A stretch of DNA of 64,000 bases from Patescibacteria group bacterium (GCA_016861205.1 BOKX01000001.1:328539-392538), one strand, 5' to 3'; counted from the first letter of the stretch, positions 497-10,427 are shown. A program made the numbers and translations. The notes: generated by a model not told the origin, from the sequence alone.

Positions 497-3310
497 CTAT
501 TGTAGCTGGAGGGTGTCACCTTTGACTAGCTTGGTCTTGGTTTTGGTTTCGATCTGTGTCTGCCACTCGGCTGGCCAACTTGGAAGTTGCACTGTCACTA
601 CATCGTCAGGTTGCAACTTGTGCGTCCGGCGCAGATTTTGAATGTCCCGCATCAACTCCCGGGCCTCGCCTTCGGCTTTCAACTCTGGGGTCAGCTGGGT
701 GTCAAGCTCGACATTCAGACCTTCAGCGGCTGTTAACCACTCAATTTGTTTGATATTGACCTCAGCGGCCAAAATAGCCAGGGCCTCGCTACTTGGTTTT
801 GGCTGCGAGGTTGACACTGTCACCTTGGCCAGCGGTTGGCGGACTTTCAAAGCAGCCTGTTTGCGGGCAGCATGGATCGCCTCGGTGGCTGTCTGGATAG
901 CTGCCATTTCGGTTTCAAGTTGCTCTGAGACCCATGTCTCGTTTGCCGTCGGCCAATCAGTGTGATGGATAGAGGTGTCAGCATCAACCATAGCTTGATG
1001 GATCACCTCACTAAAAAATGGTGTGATTGGCGCAAACAACTGTGCCAAAGTATAGAGAGCATACCCAAACACTTGGCTGACCTCGGATCGGCTGTCGCCT
1101 TTCAAGCGATCTCGGCTTAGGCGGAGATACCAAGTTGAAAGTTGGTCAACAAAAGCCATCAGCGTACGACTGGCCCGAACAACATCGTAACCATCCAGTT
1201 GTTCTGTGACTTGCTGAATAGTGTGCTCAACACGACTGAGTAGCCATTTGTCCAAAATATGCTTTGGCGGCACTTCGGGTTTAGCCACTCCAGCGGTTGT
1301 GTCAGCAAACTGTCGGTAAAAGCCCAGCATGTTCCACCACACCACGAATACTTTTCGGCGAATGTCGGCAACCTCTTTTTCAGCAAAGTTTAAGTTCTCA
1401 GACTTCATGACTGTTGAGCTCATCAAGTACAGCCGTAGACTGTCAACCCCATAGGTATTGATCAAAATCATTGGATCGGGGTAGTTTTGTTTCGACTTAC
1501 TCATTTTGCTACCGTCTTCAGCCAAAATGGTCCCCGTGGTCAAGACATTTTCAAATGGTGGCTTGCCAAAGATACCAGTTGAGATAACGTGCATGGTGTA
1601 AAACCAAGCCCGTGTTTGAGCAATGTACTCACTGACAAATTGTGCGGGGTAGTTTTGCTCAAACTCGTCTTTGTGTTCAAACGGATAGTGGATGGCGGCA
1701 AACGGCATGGAACCTGACTCCACCCAGCAATCAAACACTTCAGGAATACGCCGCCCTTTGATCGTCTTGGCCTCGTCAACCCAAACTTCGATCGCATCGA
1801 GGTATTCTCGGTGAATGTCACTGAGTTCTGCCTTAGCGGGATTGACGGCCCATTGTTTCAACTCGGCAACCGAACCAATCACTCGACGCTGCTTGCCGTC
1901 CGCTGACTGCCAAATTGGCATGGGTGTTCCCCAATAGCGAGACCGTGAAATGTTCCAGTCCGGCGCATTTTCTAAACCTTTTTGGAACCGACCATGTTTA
2001 AGATGAGCTGGAAACCAGTTGATCTGCTCATTGTTGGCTAACAACTTGTCGCGCAACTGAGCGATATCGATAAACCAAGCCGGTAGGGGTGCGTAGTACA
2101 AACGGGTACCACAGCGATAACACGTCGCCACACTATGGGTGTGGGGTTCATCACGATAGATCAAGTTGCGTTGAGCTAACTCAGCATTCACCAAAGGATT
2201 AACAGCTAAAATATCCATGCCTGCCCAAGGTTTTACCTCTGCTCTCAACTTACCTTCCTCATCGACGTGTTCAACCAACTGAATGTGGTGGTCAGTCATG
2301 ACTCGGTAGTCGTCTTCACCATAAATGGCGAGTGTTACGATACCCGTACCTTCTTCAGCGGTCACAAACTCGTCAGCCACCACCACCCCAAACTGTTCGT
2401 CGCCAATGCGCTCAGGATAGAAATCAAAGTGGGGTGTAAACGTCACCTCAGCCAGCTCTCGCCCACTCATGGTCGCAACCACTTCATAGGGCTCATCTTT
2501 TAACTCACTAAGTCTGGTCTCGGCCAAGATGTACTGTTCGCCACCTTGTTTGACTTTGACGTACTTGAGGTCTGGATTGACAGCTAAAGCTGGCGTCGCC
2601 AGTTTGTTCCAAGGCGTGGTCGACCAAGCAAGTAAGTACGTATCTTGTTCACCAACAACGGGATATTTATACGTGGTCCCAGGCTCAGTCACCTCTTGGT
2701 AACTGTTGTCCATGGCAATCTCAAAATTGGACAGAGGCGTGGCGCAACGAGGACAGTACAAAATCACTTTGCGGCCTTCGTACACGAGACCCTTATCCCA
2801 GAGCTGTTGAAAACCCCACCACACTGACTCCATGAATGTGGCATCCATGGTTTTGTAGTTGTGTTCAAAATCAACCCAGCGCCCGAGACGCCCAATGATC
2901 TTCTCCCACTCTTTGTCTAGTCGCATCACTTCAGCCCGGCAGGCGTCGTTAAACTTGTCGATACCGAGGCTTTCGATGCCTTTTTTGCCATTTTTGATCT
3001 CGAGCTTTTTCTCGATCATGTTTTCGATTGGCAGACCATGGCAATCCCAACCCCAAACCCGCTCCACACGGTAGCCTTTCATGGTCCAGTAGCGAGGAAT
3101 CACATCTTTGGTAGTTGAAGCGAGTAAATGCCCATAATGAGGCATCCCAGTTGCAAACGGGGGCCCGTCATAGAACACGTATGACTTGTCGGCTGACCGT
3201 TGCTCAACTGATTTCTCAAAAGCTTGCGTGTTCTGCCAAAATGTCAAAACCGCTTCCTCAAGCTCAGGGAAAGCTGGCGGCTGGGTAAAGGTGTGGGTTT
3301 TAGTTGGCAT
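497..3310 (-). CDS. ileS: Isoleucyl-tRNA synthetase, type 2 (eukaryote/archaeal-like class I aaRS)
   Basis: 937 aa. The HIGH motif appears as PHYGH near the N-terminus (FYDGPPFATGMPHYGHLL), and there is a KMSKS motif (GSKMSKSKQNYPDP). Length and WCISR-like editing-domain architecture fit IleRS. Confidence 0.9.
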   Translation of the reverse strand: MPTKTHTFTQPPAFPELEEAVLTFWQNTQAFEKSVEQRSADKSYVFYDGPPFATGMPHYGHLLASTTKDVIPRYWTMKGYRVERVWGWDCHGLPIENMIEKKLEIKNGKKGIESLGIDKFNDACRAEVMRLDKEWEKIIGRLGRWVDFEHNYKTMDATFMESVWWGFQQLWDKGLVYEGRKVILYCPRCATPLSNFEIAMDNSYQEVTEPGTTYKYPVVGEQDTYLLAWSTTPWNKLATPALAVNPDLKYVKVKQGGEQYILAETRLSELKDEPYEVVATMSGRELAEVTFTPHFDFYPERIGDEQFGVVVADEFVTAEEGTGIVTLAIYGEDDYRVMTDHHIQLVEHVDEEGKLRAEVKPWAGMDILAVNPLVNAELAQRNLIYRDEPHTHSVATCYRCGTRLYYAPLPAWFIDIAQLRDKLLANNEQINWFPAHLKHGRFQKGLENAPDWNISRSRYWGTPMPIWQSADGKQRRVIGSVAELKQWAVNPAKAELSDIHREYLDAIEVWVDEAKTIKGRRIPEVFDCWVESGSMPFAAIHYPFEHKDEFEQNYPAQFVSEYIAQTRAWFYTMHVISTGIFGKPPFENVLTTGTILAEDGSKMSKSKQNYPDPMILINTYGVDSLRLYLMSSTVMKSENLNFAEKEVADIRRKVFVVWWNMLGFYRQFADTTAGVAKPEVPPKHILDKWLLSRVEHTIQQVTEQLDGYDVVRASRTLMAFVDQLSTWYLRLSRDRLKGDSRSEVSQVFGYALYTLAQLFAPITPFFSEVIHQAMVDADTSIHHTDWPTANETWVSEQLETEMAAIQTATEAIHAARKQAALKVRQPLAKVTVSTSQPKPSSEALAILAAEVNIKQIEWLTAAEGLNVELDTQLTPELKAEGEARELMRDIQNLRRTHKLQPDDVVTVQLPSWPAEWQTQIETKTKTKLVKGDTLQLQ

Positions 3311-3947
3311 GGGCAGTTTCCTTTGGCAGAACTAGTTTCATTCTGGCATTGATTTCATGCGTCTCACGCTGCAACTCACCCAAGTATGCCTGAAGGATGG
3401 CTGCTTCTTGGCGAGTGACCAAATCTGAGCTCTCTAAAGTCCCGGCCAGCGGTCGACCTTCTTCATCATAGCGTTGATACACGGCACTGTCATGAGAAAT
3501 ACCCAGTCGGGTTGGTCGCACATCAAGAGTGAGCAGGTGTCGCTGATCTATGATGTCTCTAATTACTAGCCGTCGAGAGATGTTGTTTGGCTCAAACTTG
3601 CCGGCAACTTGGTCATTTTGCCAAGTTGCCTCATAACGCAACTGTGCCTTTTTGAAGTCAAACCCAAACTGGACGGGCGTTGAGAGTGGAATATCTCTAG
3701 CGCCCAGTGCTCGCCAGTCATGCAGCCAAAAGGCGTTTTTGACGATGGCCTCTAAAATGGTCACTAAGTTGAAGGTGATACCTTCTTGAGCGGTCTCCTT
3801 ATCTCGGAAGAGTCGTGTACTATCGGTTTCATCACTAAAGATTGATACAGCGGCCAAGCCGTCAAAGCTGGTCAGATCGTACTCTTCCAGCCAAGCCTCG
3901 AGCTCGGCTTTGTTCAACTGCGGTCTGTTTTCAAAAGGCACTGACAT
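3300..3947 (-). CDS. Hypothetical protein, paralog A of a tandem pair. Its stop overlaps the ileS start by 11 nt (translational coupling).
   Basis: 215 aa. Clear similarity to the adjacent 200-aa ORF in three blocks: FDGLAAVSIF vs FEGFAALSLF; ITFNLVTILEAI vs VSFNLATVLEEI; AAILQAYLGEL vs AAILQAYLGRL. I recognise no known family. Confidence 0.6.
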   Translation of the reverse strand: MSVPFENRPQLNKAELEAWLEEYDLTSFDGLAAVSIFSDETDSTRLFRDKETAQEGITFNLVTILEAIVKNAFWLHDWRALGARDIPLSTPVQFGFDFKKAQLRYEATWQNDQVAGKFEPNNISRRLVIRDIIDQRHLLTLDVRPTRLGISHDSAVYQRYDEEGRPLAGTLESSDLVTRQEAAILQAYLGELQRETHEINARMKLVLPKETAHAN

Positions 3948-3968
3948 ATGTTCTCTCCATTAGTAATA

Positions 3969-4571
3969 CTATTGTGGTTGGTTTGAGCTTGGTAGTTCTC
4001 TAGCGCGTTGAAGCAAGCGCCCGAGATACGCTTGTAAAATAGCTGCCTCTTTGGTGGTTAGGCTTGTTTCAGCTGATTGGGTTTTAACCTCACCGGTCTC
4101 GTTAAAGAATGAGTAGGCTGTTTCACGTTTGGAGTAGAGATCCTTTGTCGCTCTCAAATCAATACAAAACAAAAATGCCCCGGTGACTGCATCGGTAATT
4201 TTTAAACGACGATACTCAGCTTCAGAACCAGATTTTTGACCCAACCAAGTGGCTTGATAACGATCACAGTTGGTAACTGGATCGAACCCAAACGTGACTG
4301 ATTCGCCAAATTTAACTGAGATGCCACCTTGCTCTTGGCTGTAGCGACTCAATTTCGTCCCTTGCCGCATAATCTCTTCTAAGACAGTAGCTAGATTAAA
4401 ACTCACCGCATTAGCTTCTGGCTCTGTGAACACGTGTTCTGCCTCACTAGTGAACAAACTTAACGCCGCAAACCCTTCGAAAGCATCTAGTCCACGCTGA
4501 CCGGTATAAACTTCGTTTTCATAACCTGTTAGTTGCTTTGATGTTTCCACTATCGGCATTGGCATGGTCAA
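3969..4571 (-). CDS. Hypothetical protein, paralog B of the tandem pair. The ORF-track start is TTG; an ATG 6 nt downstream (MPMPIVE) is an alternative start.
   Basis: 200 aa, paralogous to 3300..3947. It is the first gene downstream of the T-box-like leader. Confidence 0.6.
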   Translation of the reverse strand: MTMPMPIVETSKQLTGYENEVYTGQRGLDAFEGFAALSLFTSEAEHVFTEPEANAVSFNLATVLEEIMRQGTKLSRYSQEQGGISVKFGESVTFGFDPVTNCDRYQATWLGQKSGSEAEYRRLKITDAVTGAFLFCIDLRATKDLYSKRETAYSFFNETGEVKTQSAETSLTTKEAAILQAYLGRLLQRARELPSSNQPQ

Positions 4572-4773
4572 ATCTTTCTCTTTTAACTACTAAAAAAGCC
4601 TCGATCAATCACGCTTAAGCATGATCAATCAAGGCTTTTCTCAAGAAGAGAAAAAGGTACCAACCTTGTGTACTTACTTCCAGCTGTTACGGGCTTGCCC
4701 GGCGCCATCTACTGCAGGTATGAACTGGTTCTCGGCGCACCTTGTTTGGTGATAGCCAAACTCGAGCGGTGTT
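4572..4773 (-). promoter_or_regulatory. Candidate T-box riboswitch leader, Ile-specific, with ultrashort stem I. It controls the operon paralogB-paralogA-ileS-(rodA).
   Basis: Read on the minus strand. A hairpin GUUUGG-CUAUCA-CCAAAC presents AUC (the Ile codon) followed by A in its terminal loop. The antiterminator has helix A1 CAAGG/CCUUG, a 7-nt bulge UGGUACC (canonical UGGNACC, with N=U pairing the tRNA-Ile discriminator A73), and helix A2 CUUUUUCUC/GAGAAAAG. The A1 and A2 3' strands overlap the 5' arm of the downstream terminator hairpin. A sigma70-like promoter sits upstream (see next feature). Confidence 0.6.
4588..4639 (-). terminator. Intrinsic terminator hairpin of the T-box leader
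   Basis: Arms AAAAGCCUUGAUUGAUCA / UGAUUGAUCGAGGCUUUU on the minus strand (15 of 18 complementary; nested TGATCA and GCTTAAGC palindromes), followed by a U6 run. It lies 20-25 nt upstream of the paralog B start. Confidence 0.5.
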
Positions 4774-4779
4774 AGCGCG

Positions 4780-4812
4780 ATTATACGTCAGATAGCTTGT
4801 TTGAGCAATTTC
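4780..4812 (-). promoter_or_regulatory. Sigma70-like promoter for the T-box leader/ileS operon. It overlaps the 3' end of the 316-aa gene.
   Basis: Minus strand: TTGCTC (-35, 4807..4812), a 17-nt spacer, then TATAAT (perfect -10, 4780..4785). Confidence 0.5.
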
Positions 4813-5738
4813 TGCTTACTTGTCACAAGTATGTCACGAGCTGCTTGGTATCGAGTTTGCCATGCTGGCAAGTAACTTTGCAACCATTTCTCAGTGGACT
4901 TTGGCGAAGTTTCCCAGGTACTTAATTGGCCATTAACCATGACCAAACTGGCGTAGTACTTCTCTAGTTGGTCATAAAACTGGGTTGCTTCATCCAAGTA
5001 GCGATTGGTAATCAGCCACTCAACACATACCGTGCTAAGCCGGTTGGTGTTAATTGAACCTTCATTCCCTTTGTTCTCTTTTTCAAGGTCACTATTTGTT
5101 TTGAGTGTGGACAAAATTGAGTCCAAAGCTTTGATGTTTGACTCACACTCATTGAGCAGTGCCTCCAGACGGCGGATGTTTTGGTCACGGTCAAGCGTTT
5201 GCACTAAGCTACCCCTGCCCCCTATTACTTCCAGTACAGTACTGTCGATGCCTTGCGGATTATGAACACAATCAGTTAAGGCTGTTTTAAAGGCCTTTCG
5301 AAATTCCTCCATCTTGATGTGGTCATTCGGGTAGTAAGTAAGTGTTCCTTTATTACTGATGTCGAATGGTAGTGGTTTAGGGCTGTTCACATCTCGGATA
5401 GTGATTGTGCCATGTTTAAAACTTTGTCGAACGCCCAGTTCCCAAAAGACGTTGGCGTTGTTATCTGTTGTGTCGACAACAACCACTGGGGCATTAACTA
5501 ACTCTAAGATAATTTCAGCTTGTAGATTGCCTCTTACCGCTTCAGAGCGTTTTACCTTCAGTTGTGTGTTTTCTTCGATCAAGGGTTTGAGGAATTTTTC
5601 GTAATGTTCCGTCCAGTAACTTTCGGTGTGCTCCTCGGTTGTTTTGCTGAATGGCATCACCACAAAACACGTGTTACTTGTGACTTGTGTGCTCTGTGGC
5701 AAATTTGCTGCTTTTGGGGCACGTTTCTTCCTTGCCAT
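4788..5738 (-). CDS. Hypothetical protein: N-terminal Rossmann-like nucleotide-binding domain of TIR/NDT(SLOG)-like flavour plus a C-terminal coiled-coil. It starts 30 nt downstream of ftsZ.
   Basis: 316 aa. It has a basic N-terminus, then a beta-strand-MPF motif (CFVVMPFS), and later VVVVDTTDNNANVFWELGVRQSFKHGTITI, typical of TIR/nucleoside-2-deoxyribosyltransferase-like folds. The C-terminal third is heptad-rich (IRRLEALLNECESNIKALDSILSTLK...). The family call is from pattern memory only. Confidence 0.5.
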   Translation of the reverse strand: MARKKRAPKAANLPQSTQVTSNTCFVVMPFSKTTEEHTESYWTEHYEKFLKPLIEENTQLKVKRSEAVRGNLQAEIILELVNAPVVVVDTTDNNANVFWELGVRQSFKHGTITIRDVNSPKPLPFDISNKGTLTYYPNDHIKMEEFRKAFKTALTDCVHNPQGIDSTVLEVIGGRGSLVQTLDRDQNIRRLEALLNECESNIKALDSILSTLKTNSDLEKENKGNEGSINTNRLSTVCVEWLITNRYLDEATQFYDQLEKYYASLVMVNGQLSTWETSPKSTEKWLQSYLPAWQTRYQAARDILVTSKQKLLKQAI

Positions 5739-5768
5739 ATAATGCTTTCTGGGGCAGGAAAATGTGGT

Positions 5769-7073
5769 CTACTTTTGTCTCAAAAAAGCCGGGATCTCAA
5801 ACTCGTCATCAAACGAGTCGTCACTCTGAGCCTGATCAGCTGGTTGACCAGCTGGCGGTGCGGCACCAGTTAAGACTGGTGGATTAACTGAATCACCAAA
5901 AGCTTGTGATTTGACAAATGGTTGATGACCACTCATGGCCGACACGTTTTGTGCTGGCATAGAAGCAGCAGGCAGTGGTTGGGTAAATGAACCTGGTGCC
6001 CGGTCAATTTTAGGAGCAGCTGGTTCTTCTTTTGCAGGTGCTGGTGTCAAACGCCGTTGCGAGTCACGACCGTAGGCTCCAAAAATTGGTCGAGTCGCGG
6101 CTGCATAGCCCATTTGGCGCTCATCAAAACCAGTCGCAATGACACTGATTTTGATCTTCGAGCCCATGTTCTCATCAATGGTAGCTCCGAAAATAATGTT
6201 GGCTTCTGGGTGGGCAGCATTCGCAATCAGCGCCGAGGCGTCAGAAACTTCACTCATGGTCATGTCCGGACCACCGATGATGTTGTAGAGAATACCTCGA
6301 GCGCCATCAATGGAAACTTCCAATAATGGTGAAGAGATTGCCATGCGAGCCGCTGTTGAAGCTCGATTCTCACCAGTGGCTTCACCAATCCCCATCAATG
6401 CTGAACCAGAGTCCAACATAATGGTCTTTACATCGGCAAAGTCGACGTTAATTAAGCCTGGGACAGTAATCAAATCAGAGATACCTTGTACACCTTGTCC
6501 TAAAACATTGTCAGCTAAACGGAACGCGTCCAACAAGGTCATTTTCTTATCGACGACATCCATGAGACGTTGGTTGGGGATCACAATGAGGGTATCAACG
6601 TGGTCTTTCAAACTGTCGATACCTTCTTCAGCAGACTGCATCCTGCGAATACCTTCAAAAGCAAATGGCTTGGTAACCACTGCCACGGTCAGAGCACCAG
6701 ATTCTTTGGCGATTTCAGCAATAATTGGTGAGGCCCCGGTTCCGGTGCCACCACCCATACCGGCGGTGATAAAAACCATGTCAGTATCAAAAAGCAGTTC
6801 TTTAATTTTTTCACGACTTTCTTCGGCTGCAGTTCGGCCAACGTCAGGGTCAGCACCCGAACCAAGCCCTTTGGTAAAGTTATTGCCGATTTGGAGTTTT
6901 GTTTCTGCTTTGGAGGTTAAAAGCGCCTGTGCATCAGTGTTAACAGTGATGAACTCAACACCTTGAATTTGATTGGAAGAGATCATGGAGTTGACGGCGT
7001 TACCACCACCACCACCAACACCGATAACTTTAATCTTGGCAAACGTAGTATTTGAGGGTTTAACAAGTCCCAT
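5769..7073 (-). CDS. ftsZ: Cell division GTPase FtsZ
   Basis: GGGGGNAVN and [18 protein letters not shown] tubulin-signature motifs; C-terminal Pro/Ala-rich linker and [11 protein letters not shown] tail. Confidence 0.95.
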
Positions 7074-7168: not shown

Positions 7169-8479
7169 TTAAGGAATCAGTGACCGAATCAAGTGGGTAA
7201 TTTTGCCGAGTAACTGGTCTGGCTTTGCCCCACTAAACATTGAACCCAAGGCCAGACTTGGTGAAGCTGAACGAGTGTTTCCTTGACGACGACCGTACTC
7301 TAACAAACCGACCGCAGCCGCGTAGCTTGGCTTGTGAATGTCAGCAATCATGCCCTGCAGCTCGACAGGCTTCCCAACCCGAGCGGGCAAGTTTAAAACT
7401 CGTTTCGCAACCTCAACCATGCCGACGGTTTCGGCACCGCCACCTGTCAAGACCAATCCAGCCGGAACCAACTCAAGAAGATGGTGGTTTGTCAGGTGTT
7501 GGCCAACCATGGTCATGATTTCCTTCATGCGAGGCACCATAATGCCTTCTACTAAGGCTTTCTTTGACAAAACATCGACTTGTTCGTCAATGCCAAGCAC
7601 CGAGATATCGAGTTGGTCAGCTTTCTTGCGACGCTTAGCCAACTCTTCTTTTGACTCACCAGGAATAGGTGTCACCGCATTTAACTCTTCGTTACCCAAG
7701 GCGAGTTTGATTTTTTCTGCTGAATCAAGGCTTATACGACACCCGAGGGCAATGTCCTGAGTGATATGTCTAGCGCCGATCGGCAACGACGCGGTATACG
7801 CTAATGAACCATCAACAAACACACAAATCGAAGTTGAACCAGCTCCAATATCCACTGCAACTACGCCCAACTCCTTTTCTGTTTCCGACAAAATCACTTC
7901 GCTACTTGCCAAACCCGTAAATACAAATCCATCAACGGTTAACCCCACATCATGAACACACTTCTCAATGTTACGGAGAGCCGTAGTCATGGCTGTGATT
8001 ATATGAGCCTCAGACTCCAAACGAACGCCAGTCATCCCAACTGGGTCTTTAATACCATCCTGTGAGTCAACTTTAAAGTTTTTGGGGATGACGTGGATAA
8101 TCTCCCGATCAGCCGGCAGTGAAACAGCGCGAGCCGCCTCGATCACTCGAGCTACGTCTTCTTTGATTATTTCTTGATTGGGTGCAGCAACTGCCACCAC
8201 ACCTTTGGAGTTTTGAGACGCGATGTGATTACCACCGATGGCCACAAAAGCACTCTTCACTTCAAAACCGGCCATCCGCTCCGCAGCGTCTAAACTCTCA
8301 GTGATAGTTTCCAGGACTTGTTCTAGATCTACGATTGTACTTTTACGCATTCCCCGCGATGAAGCTGCGGCAGCTCCAACTACCCGCAGTTGCTTAGTAG
8401 CTTCATCAAACGTCGCAATCAAGGTGACACATTTGTCTGTGCCTAAATCGATAGCGGTAATAGGTGTAACGCGCGACAT
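7169..8479 (-). CDS. ftsA: Cell division protein FtsA (actin-like ATPase)
   Basis: 436 aa. ITAIDLGTDKC N-terminal phosphate-1 motif, DIGAGSTS, actin-fold organisation; sits between ftsQ and ftsZ. Confidence 0.85.
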   Translation of the reverse strand: MSRVTPITAIDLGTDKCVTLIATFDEATKQLRVVGAAAASSRGMRKSTIVDLEQVLETITESLDAAERMAGFEVKSAFVAIGGNHIASQNSKGVVAVAAPNQEIIKEDVARVIEAARAVSLPADREIIHVIPKNFKVDSQDGIKDPVGMTGVRLESEAHIITAMTTALRNIEKCVHDVGLTVDGFVFTGLASSEVILSETEKELGVVAVDIGAGSTSICVFVDGSLAYTASLPIGARHITQDIALGCRISLDSAEKIKLALGNEELNAVTPIPGESKEELAKRRKKADQLDISVLGIDEQVDVLSKKALVEGIMVPRMKEIMTMVGQHLTNHHLLELVPAGLVLTGGGAETVGMVEVAKRVLNLPARVGKPVELQGMIADIHKPSYAAAVGLLEYGRRQGNTRSASPSLALGSMFSGAKPDQLLGKITHLIRSLIP

Positions 8480-8560: not shown

Positions 8561-9304
8561 CTAGTTTGATGTAGTTCTTACTACTGGCAGCTTGTAACGA
8601 ACATCAAACTCCATCACTCCACTCGGTAACTGTTCCAAATCCCTGGCCTGTAACAGAAGCTCTAACCGTTGGACTTGTAACTTTGGCTGATCACTATCGA
8701 TAACACCTCGGCCACCAGATTCTAGGTGAACAATGACTAAGTTATCGTTCATTAACTCTAAGCCTTTGAGTGGAATTTGGCTTTGCTCCAAGGCGGAGAC
8801 CAGCTCCCATAGAAAAGTGTGCAAACTTGGTTTAACTGCGTCACTAGCAATCACTGAACCCAAATCTTGTTGCGTTACAACTATCGGAGCTGTTAAAGCA
8901 CCATTCCACACCATCGGAAAAACTCGACCTTGTTGATTAACAACCCAACCCTCACTTGCACCTGTTTGCGAAATTCCATACGCAATTGATTTGATTTCGG
9001 CATGTAGTCGCAAGGTGCTCGGCAACTCTCTTGTCAACCCAACTACAGAGAAACCTCCGGCTCCCAACTCAGAACGCAAGTTTTCAACGTTCTTGGGCCA
9101 GAGTAACCACTGTCCCTTATGTCCTTTTGCGATGTCTAAGGCCGCCGGTGGACATGGTTGTTGATCGACCCGACAAATGATTGTTTCGATTCGAAACGTG
9201 CTCACCCAGCCCAAAGCAATGATGGCTGGGAGCAACCACCAGACTTGCCTCACCCCCAGGAGGAGTTTTGACCCCGATGAACCATCTGTAGGCAGTTTGG
9301 ACAT
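8561..9304 (-). CDS. ftsQ: FtsQ/DivIB-like cell division protein (single N-terminal TM + POTRA-like periplasmic domain)
   Basis: 247 aa, N-terminal TM (WWLLPAIIALGWV). Position between murG and ftsA. Sequence conservation is weak, as is usual for FtsQ. Confidence 0.55.
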   Translation of the reverse strand: MSKLPTDGSSGSKLLLGVRQVWWLLPAIIALGWVSTFRIETIICRVDQQPCPPAALDIAKGHKGQWLLWPKNVENLRSELGAGGFSVVGLTRELPSTLRLHAEIKSIAYGISQTGASEGWVVNQQGRVFPMVWNGALTAPIVVTQQDLGSVIASDAVKPSLHTFLWELVSALEQSQIPLKGLELMNDNLVIVHLESGGRGVIDSDQPKLQVQRLELLLQARDLEQLPSGVMEFDVRYKLPVVRTTSN

Positions 9305-9308
9305 ACCC

Positions 9309-10427
9309 TTATCGGCTGGCTTTGGCTACCACTTCATACAAAGCTTTTGCAGCATCTTTGGTTTTGGGAACCTGGGCTAAACTAGCCAGGTAATTAGCTC
9401 GATGATTTTTAACATAGTGGAGTGCGGCAACTAACGCAGCAGCGGTGACCTGCTTTTGGGGAATGACGTATGTACCACCTACCCCAGCCAACCACTCGGC
9501 GTTTCGCTGTTGCTCATTACCATGTGAGAACGGTAAAGGAATAACCACACTGGGAAGTTCGAAAGTAATAAGTTCTGCCAAGGTGTTTGCACCTGCTCTG
9601 GCCACTACTACTTGGGCATTTTGGTAAATCCATGCCAAATCTGGCTCTGAAAACCATTCCGAAACAAAGTAGGCACCTTGTTGTGCAGCCGGTAACTTCG
9701 CTTTACTTCTCTCCAGTTGCTTTCGATAGTTCGTCGTCGCGGATTTGTTCCCGCACTGATGAATTACTAGCCACATTTTGGTGAGCGCCGGTAGCGACTG
9801 TTCAATCAGGGTGTTAATAACTTGCGAGCCTTGATTACCACCGGTGACGTACAAAATTGGCTTCCGGGTAGTACTTGGTAGCCAGTTGGGTCGACTCGGT
9901 TTGGGCGTGAATAAAACTGGACGCAAAGGATTACCGGTCACCACGACTTTCCGACCAGGCAGATCTCCGGTCGTGTCTGAAAATGACACTGCTACCGTCG
10001 TTGCGACCTTACTGATGAGCTTAGTGGCTGTGCCAACTACTCTGGTTTGCTCATGTGTCACAATCGGAACTCTCAGCAACCAAGCCGCCAAAGCTAAAGG
10101 CACTGCTAAGTACCCGCCAAACGACACATAAACCGTTGGCCGGTGTCGCAGGCAAATGTATAGAGCCTTCAGCCATGACCACGCAAACTGAAGTGGGAAG
10201 AGCAAAATCCATAAGCCTAGACCACTTTGCCACCGGGGTGCCCAGAACTCTACAAATGTTAAACCTCGGTTGGTGATTTCCTGATACTCATGCGCCAGCT
10301 GTTTGGTTTGGTCTTGTGAGTAGCGACGACCAGCGAACACCAACTCATCGGCCGTAGATTGTGACCGAATGTAGTCGCACAGTGCTAAAGCTGGGGTCAA
10401 GTGACCACCGGATAATAATATCTTCAT
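9309..10427 (-). CDS. murG: UDP-GlcNAc:lipid I N-acetylglucosaminyltransferase MurG (GT28)
   Basis: MKILLSGGHLTPALAL N-terminus, GGNQGS motif, 372 aa, dcw context. Confidence 0.85.
   Translation of the reverse strand: MKILLSGGHLTPALALCDYIRSQSTADELVFAGRRYSQDQTKQLAHEYQEITNRGLTFVEFWAPRWQSGLGLWILLFPLQFAWSWLKALYICLRHRPTVYVSFGGYLAVPLALAAWLLRVPIVTHEQTRVVGTATKLISKVATTVAVSFSDTTGDLPGRKVVVTGNPLRPVLFTPKPSRPNWLPSTTRKPILYVTGGNQGSQVINTLIEQSLPALTKMWLVIHQCGNKSATTNYRKQLERSKAKLPAAQQGAYFVSEWFSEPDLAWIYQNAQVVVARAGANTLAELITFELPSVVIPLPFSHGNEQQRNAEWLAGVGGTYVIPQKQVTAAALVAALHYVKNHRANYLASLAQVPKTKDAAKALYEVVAKASR

Follow-up and report, generated by a model that had tools for sequence, protein, structure and literature searches.

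The ftsZ–ileS interval of a Patescibacteria genome as a probable accessory-gene slot around a T-box-like ileS leader

The interval between ftsZ and the isoleucyl-tRNA synthetase (IleRS) gene ileS was analysed in a stretch of 64,000 nucleotides (nt) from Patescibacteria group bacterium (GCA_016861205.1 BOKX01000001.1:328539-392538), hereafter the window, in which all the features described below lie on the minus strand. The order of elements is ftsZ, a gene for a protein of 316 amino acids (aa), named A316, a region with promoter, leader and terminator features, the paralogous genes B200 and C215, and ileS. The interval is probably a slot for accessory genes built around an RNA regulator, with two insertion sites flanking a T-box-type ileS leader, and not the seat of a set of division genes.

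Gene content of the interval and its conservation

The left anchor of the slot is ftsZ (5769-7073; TIGR00065, E 2e-131), the last gene of the division and cell wall (dcw) cluster, in which it is preceded by murG (9309-10427), ftsQ (8561-9304) and ftsA (7169-8479), and the right anchor is ileS (497-3310; TIGR00392, E 6e-239). A316 (4788-5738) starts 30 nt past the ftsZ stop, no terminator-like site was predicted between the two genes, and A316 is probably co-transcribed with ftsZ. A non-coding spacer of 216 nt (4572-4787) then separates A316 from B200, the first gene past the leader terminator, which extends over 3969-4571 from a TTG start (200 aa) or encodes 198 aa from the ATG at 4565. B200 is followed, after a gap of 21 nt that includes a strong Shine-Dalgarno sequence (GGAGAG), by C215 (3300-3947; 215 aa), the 3′ end of which overlaps the ileS start by 11 nt (ATGCCAACTAA). 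The sequence of this start, ATGCCAA (3304-3310), is repeated at the start of B200 (4559-4565). The interval is thus composed of two sites, site 1 running from the ftsZ stop to the –10 box and occupied by A316, and site 2 running from the leader terminator to the ileS start and occupied by B200 and C215.

Much of this gene content had been described in an earlier note on the same DNA. The sizes and coordinates that it gave for a 316-aa open reading frame (ORF) 30 nt after ftsZ and for a tandem pair of paralogs of about 200 aa were confirmed, as was the paralogy (32% protein identity, E 5e-27). The overlap of the second paralog with ileS, taken in that note as a sign of translational coupling, was also observed, and coupling would be expected from it. 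Similarly, the paralogs proved to have no recognisable family, since they matched nothing in Pfam, NCBIfam, PHROGs or PADLOC, and the lack of resemblance to SepF or DivIVA was borne out by the absence of Pfam and NCBIfam matches. The earlier note overlooked the 216-nt spacer, which is the key to the locus.

In Firmicutes and Actinobacteria, sepF, ylmE/G/H and divIVA are located between ftsZ and ileS. The present interval shares with that block its chromosomal neighbourhood, with ftsZ upstream and ileS downstream, but differs from it by the lack of homology, the lack of conservation in the lineage and the presence or absence of genes among strains; ancestrally, the ileS leader is all that the interval contains in this lineage. 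The relatives were collected by an FtsZ protein scan with one genome per GTDB species, which yielded 80 loci carrying ftsA-ftsZ, whose informative record titles name Pacebacteria/Paceibacterota or Patescibacteria group, and FtsA, FtsZ, A316, B200, C215 and IleS were searched against these loci by tblastn. In 68 of the 80, ftsA-ftsZ were followed by ileS on the same strand, at an ftsZ-to-ileS distance of 36-9161 nt (median 808), and no homolog of A316, B200 or C215 was detected near ftsZ by tblastn in the loci of the 80 related species. The gap is shorter than 500 nt in 30 of the 68 syntenic relatives, and therefore no gene fits in it. The ORFs found in the relatives' gaps were heterogeneous: compared all against all, they left 68 singletons and formed no more than small clusters. 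Their Pfam matches were scattered over PNP/UDP phosphorylase, methyltransferases, NUDIX, RhuM, Bro-N, DUF3800, glyoxalase and other families, PADLOC marked a few as candidate defence genes, and neither SepF nor DivIVA nor any Ylm family was found among them by Pfam and PADLOC scans. That some of these ORFs were distant homologs of A316 or of B200 and C215 was considered and dropped, as phmmer gave none. Because of these absences and of the heterogeneity of the gap ORFs, the interval is regarded as a variable accessory slot rather than a place reserved for division genes.

The nearest other species (L004; FtsZ 90% identical) carries a different, unrelated ORF past ftsZ (L004:3306-3779), which begins 21 nt after ftsZ, is cut off by the end of the contig and matched no family. 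Many of the GTDB-representative metagenome-assembled genomes (loci L004-L083) are titled 'uncultured Pseudomonadales bacterium' despite their Patescibacteria-type FtsZ, FtsA and IleS, and others bear titles such as 'Vitreimonas sp.', 'Limisphaerales' or 'Methylococcaceae'; these records look mislabelled.

The ileS leader and its T-box features

The spacer between A316 and B200 is the ileS leader of this lineage, as demonstrated by homology and covariation. An nhmmer profile built from a leader alignment of 30 relatives, with the window excluded, gave a single match in the 64-kb window, at 4771-4587 on the minus strand (E 3.1e-31, 102.7 bits), and the same profile matched 64 of 83 loci, for example at L005:9701-9861 and L081:11355-11535. 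The motif TGG[N]ACC was present 70-230 nt upstream of ileS in 57 of the 68 relatives, the chance expectation being about 0.02 per sequence. RNAalifold analysis of the relatives' leader alignment returned 25 pairs, 21 of them with compensatory changes. In a controlled count, 95.6% of the leader cells were paired versus 70.2% in shuffles, and 187 cells versus 54 in shuffles showed double changes; moreover, pairing fell to 35-52% when the pairing partners were slid by 1-3 columns. The fold of the window leader has an energy of –64.7 kcal/mol (z –3.9).

Upstream of the leader, a putative –10 box (TATAAT, 4780-4785) begins 2 nt past the A316 stop and about 10 nt ahead of the leader, and a putative –35 element (TTGCTC), separated from it by a 17-nt spacer, lies inside the 3′ end of A316. 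A TATAAT-type box is found at the same distance upstream of the leader in relatives and in another strain of the species, L091 (TATACT), and together these elements are tentatively assigned as the ileS leader promoter.

The leader (4587-4771) presents a specifier hairpin at 4744-4761 (GUUUGG-CUAUCA-CCAAAC), with the isoleucine codon AUC at 4751-4753 followed by a purine in the loop. AUC plus purine (ATC[AG]) occupies a hairpin loop in 57 of 63 leaders upstream of ileS, window included; the stems of this hairpin covary freely, and [AG]AGG[UC]G comes after it. In most leaders, Stem I is a hairpin of 4-7 bp with the specifier in its terminal loop, and a few leaders have a short distal hairpin. 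A covarying 5-bp helix (compensatory changes in 5/5 pairs) is followed by an invariant CCGGGUAAGCCCGUAA, which resembles the F-box region (CCGUCA), and the leader also contains an invariant CGG/CCG hairpin inside CCGGGTAAGCCCGTAA. The T-box bulge, UGGUACC in the window (4656-4662) and UGG[U/C/A]ACC in general, is arranged with UGGN flush to helix A1, ACC next and helix A2 after it. The GG/CC pairs of A1 are invariant, the A2 pairs have compensatory changes in 6/6, and UGGU of the bulge would pair with the ACCA-3′ end of tRNA-Ile. The intrinsic terminator (4590-4640) consists of a long hairpin and six consecutive U after it; in relatives all nine of its helix pairs show compensatory changes (9/9), the T-run is nearly invariant, and the 5′ arm of the terminator overlaps the 3′ strand of the antiterminator helix A1. 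This arrangement suggests that the leader would bind tRNA and undergo antitermination. In Rfam scans, only spurious miRNA hairpin matches on the terminator were obtained.

A long Stem I with a platform that binds the tRNA elbow is generally required in transcriptional T-boxes, and a short Stem I goes with translational control, which is typical of the actinobacterial ileS T-boxes, such as those of Nocardia farcinica and Mycobacterium tuberculosis (PMC7583486). The present leader shares with these actinobacterial T-boxes its location upstream of ileS, the AUC-plus-purine specifier, the very short Stem I, the covarying Stem II-like helix followed by the F-box-like CCGGGUAAGCCCGUAA, and the 7-nt UGGUACC bulge with UGGN flush to A1 and A2 after it. 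It differs from them in that its expression platform is an intrinsic terminator with a U-run, and hence of the transcriptional type, in its Patescibacteria host, in the lack of any score with the Rfam T-box model RF00230, and in the presence, in this species, of one or two protein genes between leader and ileS. No report of T-boxes in Patescibacteria or in the Candidate Phyla Radiation (CPR) was found in the searchable literature.

Strain layouts and the accessory genes at the two sites

Contigs of other strains, recovered by exact look-ups of C-type proteins, revealed different layouts of the two sites. The window strain, to which L002 and L003 are identical and which serves here as the reference, carries A316 between ftsZ and the leader, and B followed by C between the leader and ileS. 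In L001, the first position holds a 314-aa version, A314 (protein 95% identical), and the second a single C-type gene (81%), B (window 3936-4558) being absent. L091 and L092 carry two unrelated overlapping ORFs of 152 and 180 aa in the place of A316, together with one C-type gene (81%). These two ORFs (L091:4728-5721; also L092:1994-2987) overlap by 8 nt, had no Pfam or PADLOC match and represent an orphan two-gene cassette at the A316 site; the idea that they were a split A316 was dropped, as there is no similarity. Compared with the window, L091 and L092 have FtsZ 100%, FtsA 99.5%, IleS 99.6% and the leader 95% identical; FtsZ is also 100% identical in L001, and IleS is 99.4-99.6% identical in L001 and L091. 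A316 and the B/C genes thus assort independently among strains, and neither A316 nor B is fixed within the species. Since the two insertion sites are split by the ileS promoter, leader and terminator, and given this independent assortment, the three genes do not constitute a trio.

The divergence of the accessory genes also departs from that of their flanks. Between the window and L001, the synonymous divergence (dS) is 0.007 for ftsZ, 0.04 for ileS, 0.19 for A316 and 1.52 for C215, and the ratio of nonsynonymous to synonymous divergence (dN/dS) is 0.12 for A316 and 0.076 for C215. In a 100-nt identity profile of the same pair, the flanks are 99-100% and the leader 96-98% identical, and the C ORF falls to 65-81%, or 89% over its final 50 nt, the change being abrupt at the ORF borders. 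The purifying selection, the dS of 1.52 and these abrupt borders mark C as a genuine gene with alleles that long predate the genome around them. Such divergence would fit an exchange of cassettes in which recombination took place in the conserved arms, the leader and ileS. In A316, the middle of the gene (5000-5650, approximately residues 30-245) is 85-96% identical and the gene ends are 99-100% identical; the lowest identity is found at 5100-5399, about residues 130-215, which correspond to the linker and the first helix of the bundle.

The junctions of site 2 carry a further signature. In L001 and L091, the passenger gene starts with AAAGGAAC.GC.C-ATGCCAAC, and ileS starts inside the 3′ end of the passenger with AAAGGAAACTGCCC-ATGCCAAC. 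The repeat is of about 22 nt in these strains, with the Shine-Dalgarno sequence included (AAAGGAA..ATGCCAAC), and is ATGCCAA in the window; ATGCCA is a common ileS start among the relatives. Given these junction repeats in three strains, the site-2 cassette appears to be bracketed by a duplicated ribosome-binding site and start codon of ileS.

B200 and C215 are 32% identical as proteins and far diverged in their DNA. B200 has an isoelectric point of 5.0 and no transmembrane segment. A search of B200 against 5.8 billion proteins returned only the self-match, and that of C215 its own cluster and one cluster of 81% identity. An exhaustive profile search of 1.84 billion representatives retrieved, besides alleles of the same species, no more than a truncated fragment of the B type and a false positive of low complexity, and a metagenome-contig scan with the B/C profile yielded none. 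The fragment, P0124, is a truncated homolog on a 909-bp contig, 52% identical to B and 34% to C; because it is B-type, the B/C duplication should be older than these lineages, B having most likely been lost in L001 and L091. The B/C and A316 profiles matched nothing among the PDB sequences, and the AlphaFold model of C215 was poor (predicted local distance difference test score, pLDDT, of 56), with no fold match. A relationship between B/C and A316 was also considered and dropped (hhalign probability 0.1%). As judged from their sequences, B and C form a true orphan family under purifying selection, whose members are acidic and soluble and about 200 aa long, and our working guess is that they represent a strain-variable accessory protein riding the ileS operon, and no division factor.

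A316, by contrast with these orphans, belongs to a large family, with at least 555 database homologs at E ≤ 1e-3, the best non-self ones being 52-54% identical. Those of the best homologs that are named come from a WOR-3 bacterium, Methanoperedens, Methanomicrobia, Bathyarchaeota and Hodarchaeota, and since they are only 52-54% identical, compared with 70-90% for FtsZ among the relatives, A316 did not descend vertically together with the dcw cluster. The slightly lower GC content of A316 and B200 (0.44-0.45 versus 0.48) is too weak a sign of transfer by itself. An alignment of 26 family sequences has a mean column identity of 61% and two invariant blocks, C24-F25..M28-P29.S31 and N96-V97.W99-E100-L101-G102; E100, within NV[YF]WELG, is invariant in 26/26 and, from its motif and position, may be equivalent to a catalytic Glu. 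The proteins combine an N-terminal TIR/NDT-like domain, which has an alpha/beta fold with a flavodoxin-like parallel beta-sheet, and a C-terminal four-helix bundle. All 26 members match the PADLOC TIR effector model PDLC00733 (best E 4e-11), A316 matches PHROG 3634, of unknown function, at E 1e-22, no Pfam family was matched consistently by the 26 members, and DUF4062 (PF13271) matched neither A316 nor 25 homologs. The best structural match of A316 is the CMP hydrolase MilB, and another is a 303-aa Siphoviridae protein annotated as CMP/hmCMP hydrolase.

In six other genomes, the A316 homologs are solo genes with unrelated and variable neighbours, namely a tetratricopeptide repeat (TPR) protein; a PIN/MazE pair; a ribbon-helix-helix (RHH) gene with small ORFs and an integrase; nadB/nadC; ORF6N proteins; and YhcG with SWIM. 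No partner gene of the Thoeris, CBASS or Pycsar kind (ThsA, cyclase/CD-NTase) was found beside A316 or conserved in these six genomes. In one of them (L087:6001-6888, and L088), the homolog is placed between nadB (FAD_binding_2) and nadC (QRPTase), directly after nadA; this location inside the de novo NAD biosynthesis operon, a single case, is suggestive of an NAD-related substrate. A few kb from that homolog, L087:9136-12888 holds a tandem array of at least nine 141-aa paralogs with weak SCP2 matches. In a Methanoperedens locus (L085:9871-10848), the homolog adjoins the PIN/MazE pair and is located about 3 kb from an FtsZ/tubulin gene, a proximity that is probably a coincidence.

No tRNA genes were found in the window. 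MupA and MupB are mupirocin-resistant, eukaryote-like type 2 IleRS. The window IleRS (497-3310) obtained strong scores against the MupA and MupB models (E 1e-191 and 2e-185), below their cut-offs, and because of these scores and of its DUF5915 C-terminal domain it is taken to be of type 2.

Proposed build-up of the locus and alternative explanations

In the proposed ancestral state, ftsZ would have been followed by a short spacer, a promoter, an isoleucine-specific T-box-type leader with its intrinsic terminator, and ileS, and two separate insertion sites would have come to flank the leader. Site 1 would have received A316 as a horizontally acquired stand-alone gene, and site 2 one or two copies of the B/C orphan family. 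The first passenger would initiate at the apparent old ileS initiation region directly past the terminator, and ileS would restart within the last 11 nt of the passenger by translational coupling; such a duplication of the start together with coupling would therefore allow an essential operon to tolerate genes inserted into its 5′ end. As B and C lie between the terminator and ileS, they would be expressed only upon read-through of the leader, that is, when uncharged tRNA-Ile blocks termination, and on the ileS mRNA.

For A316, the TIR/NDT-like domain may be an N-glycosidase that is gated by the C-terminal four-helix bundle and acts on a nucleotide, NAD+ being the most likely substrate, so that the protein would serve in stress or defence as a single-gene effector, in the manner of Swarozyc and other TIR-like NADases. 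Swarozyc consists of one DUF4062 TIR-like NADase that carries a helical auxiliary domain, its catalytic residue being E97 in KpSwz (10.64898/2026.05.01.722283). The two are alike in being encoded by one gene, in having an N-terminal TIR-like alpha/beta domain and a helical C-terminal auxiliary domain, in the conserved Glu near residue 100 (E100 versus E97 in KpSwz) and in a patchy distribution over bacteria and archaea that resembles horizontal gene transfer; A316 differs in the absence of a DUF4062 match, in its C-terminal domain, which is a compact four-helix bundle, and in that its family gave no match in the phage and plasmid collections searched. From the hydrolases of the NDT superfamily (MilB 4ohr, RCL/DNPH1 2khz, NDT 7o62), it is set apart by the lack of a sequence-profile match, an extra helical domain of 150 residues and an accessory, strain-variable distribution. 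The NADase or glycosidase activity and the defence role of A316 are putative.

Several observations weigh against this picture of an accessory slot around a T-box-type leader with a TIR-like effector at site 1. No long Stem I with a distal tRNA-elbow platform was found in the leaders examined. RF00230 recognised the leader neither in the window, whether the whole window was scanned at the gathering threshold or only 3200-5900 or 4550-4800 (251 nt, E ≤ 10), nor in the leaders of 7 relatives, probably because Stem I is without its distal part. The Pfam and NCBIfam models TIR, TIR_2, TIR-like, DUF4062 and NDT gave no match for A316 at E ≤ 1, its substrate could differ from NAD+ given that the best structural match is MilB, and no A316 homologs were found in plasmid or phage collections (tblastn) or among IMG/VR viral contigs. 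Furthermore, only some of the six neighbourhoods of A316 homologs are defence- or mobile-element-like and some are housekeeping, the co-transcription of A316 with ftsZ is deduced solely from spacing and the absence of predicted terminators, and the predicted fold of B and C is of low confidence (pLDDT 56).

The alternatives fare less well. The earlier note had suggested that the three proteins were non-orthologous division or envelope factors of the lineage, in replacement of SepF, YlmE-H and DivIVA, and their position, which holds sepF-ylm-divIVA in Firmicutes, as well as the 30 nt that separate A316 from ftsZ and its probable co-transcription, would fit that role. None of the three, however, is present in the 80 related species with dcw-ftsZ loci, an absence that the earlier note itself regarded as refuting its proposal; the slot is gene-free in 30 of 68 relatives, strains with identical FtsZ are without A316 or B200, so that the genes vary within one species, the A316 family occurs in archaea and unrelated bacteria in non-division contexts, and none of the three resembles SepF, DivIVA or YlmE-H in Pfam scans. 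A division role is therefore extremely unlikely. That note had also called the genes lineage-specific, which applies to the orphans B and C but not to A316, whose homologs span bacteria and archaea, and had envisaged a TIR-like module inserted at a hotspot, which holds for A316 alone and not for B and C. The family and fold checks that it proposed gave the PADLOC TIR model (26/26) and fold matches for A316 and no family or confident model for B and C. A single defence system, with A316 as TIR-like effector and B and C as two paralogous sensor or immunity subunits, is very improbable as well. All three genes occur together in the window strain, the A316 type and C do so in L001, and A316 and C both diverge more between strains than their flanks; yet L091 has its C-type gene without A316, no genome with an A316 homolog has B/C, a family found nowhere else among 5.8 billion proteins or 1.8 billion representatives, and a promoter, a riboswitch-like leader and a terminator lie between A316 and B/C. 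In addition, dS differs 8-fold between A316 and C215, which points to different histories, and A316 has no profile similarity to B/C.

For A316 the main rival, doubtful but possible, is a housekeeping or salvage nucleotide N-glycosidase of the MilB, DNPH1/RCL or NDT type rather than an immune NADase. Its patchy spread across domains at about 50% identity and its presence or absence within the species are unlike those of housekeeping genes, the neighbours of its homologs include toxin-antitoxin genes, an integrase, ORF6N and YhcG, and its one consistent hidden Markov model match is to a TIR defence effector, with no Pfam NDT match. With regard to B and C, an action on IleRS or tRNA-Ile, such as that of a protective factor or of a modulator induced by starvation, would agree with their place between the leader terminator and ileS, with the overlap of C and the ileS start in all three strains and with the purifying selection on them. 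We consider it rather improbable, as B and C are absent from every other species with the same leader-ileS arrangement, B is dispensable at the strain level, the C dS of 1.5 beside an IleRS 99.4% identical argues against tight co-evolution, and no homology to domains associated with aminoacyl-tRNA synthetases is detectable. That they are chance ORFs or decaying pseudogenes, as the lack of homologs beyond the species cluster and of a confident structure prediction might suggest, is hardly credible in view of the protein homology of B and C (E 5e-27) despite their far-diverged DNA, of a dN/dS of 0.076 at dS 1.5 among C alleles, of a C frame that is intact in at least five alleles and of the strong Shine-Dalgarno sequence before C. 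A bolder extension of the accessory-slot reading, which we hold to be speculative and unlikely, is that B and C represent a new type of passenger, lodged between a riboswitch-type leader and an essential gene through start duplication, gated by tRNA-Ile and translationally coupled, with either an isoleucine-starvation or IleRS-related function or, in its diverged alleles, a role as strain antagonism or immunity factor, and that A316 is, in parallel, an undescribed one-gene TIR-like NADase immunity system of CPR bacteria and archaea.

The accessory-slot reading removes the tempting inference from 'ftsZ neighbour' to 'division function' in a phylum whose division machinery is poorly known, and describes a locus that is hypervariable within near-clonal strains of a 1.15-Mb genome. 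It also brings forward a T-box-like leader of Patescibacteria in which a very short Stem I occurs together with a transcription terminator. This leader is missed by current models, and the combination departs from the general rule of a long Stem I in transcriptional T-boxes. The family of TIR-like plus four-helix-bundle proteins to which A316 belongs is large, uncurated, highly conserved and common to bacteria and archaea, and is a candidate for a single-gene nucleotide-cleaving effector. Finally, the duplication of the start region together with translational coupling would provide a way to insert genes into an essential, riboswitch-controlled operon without breaking it.

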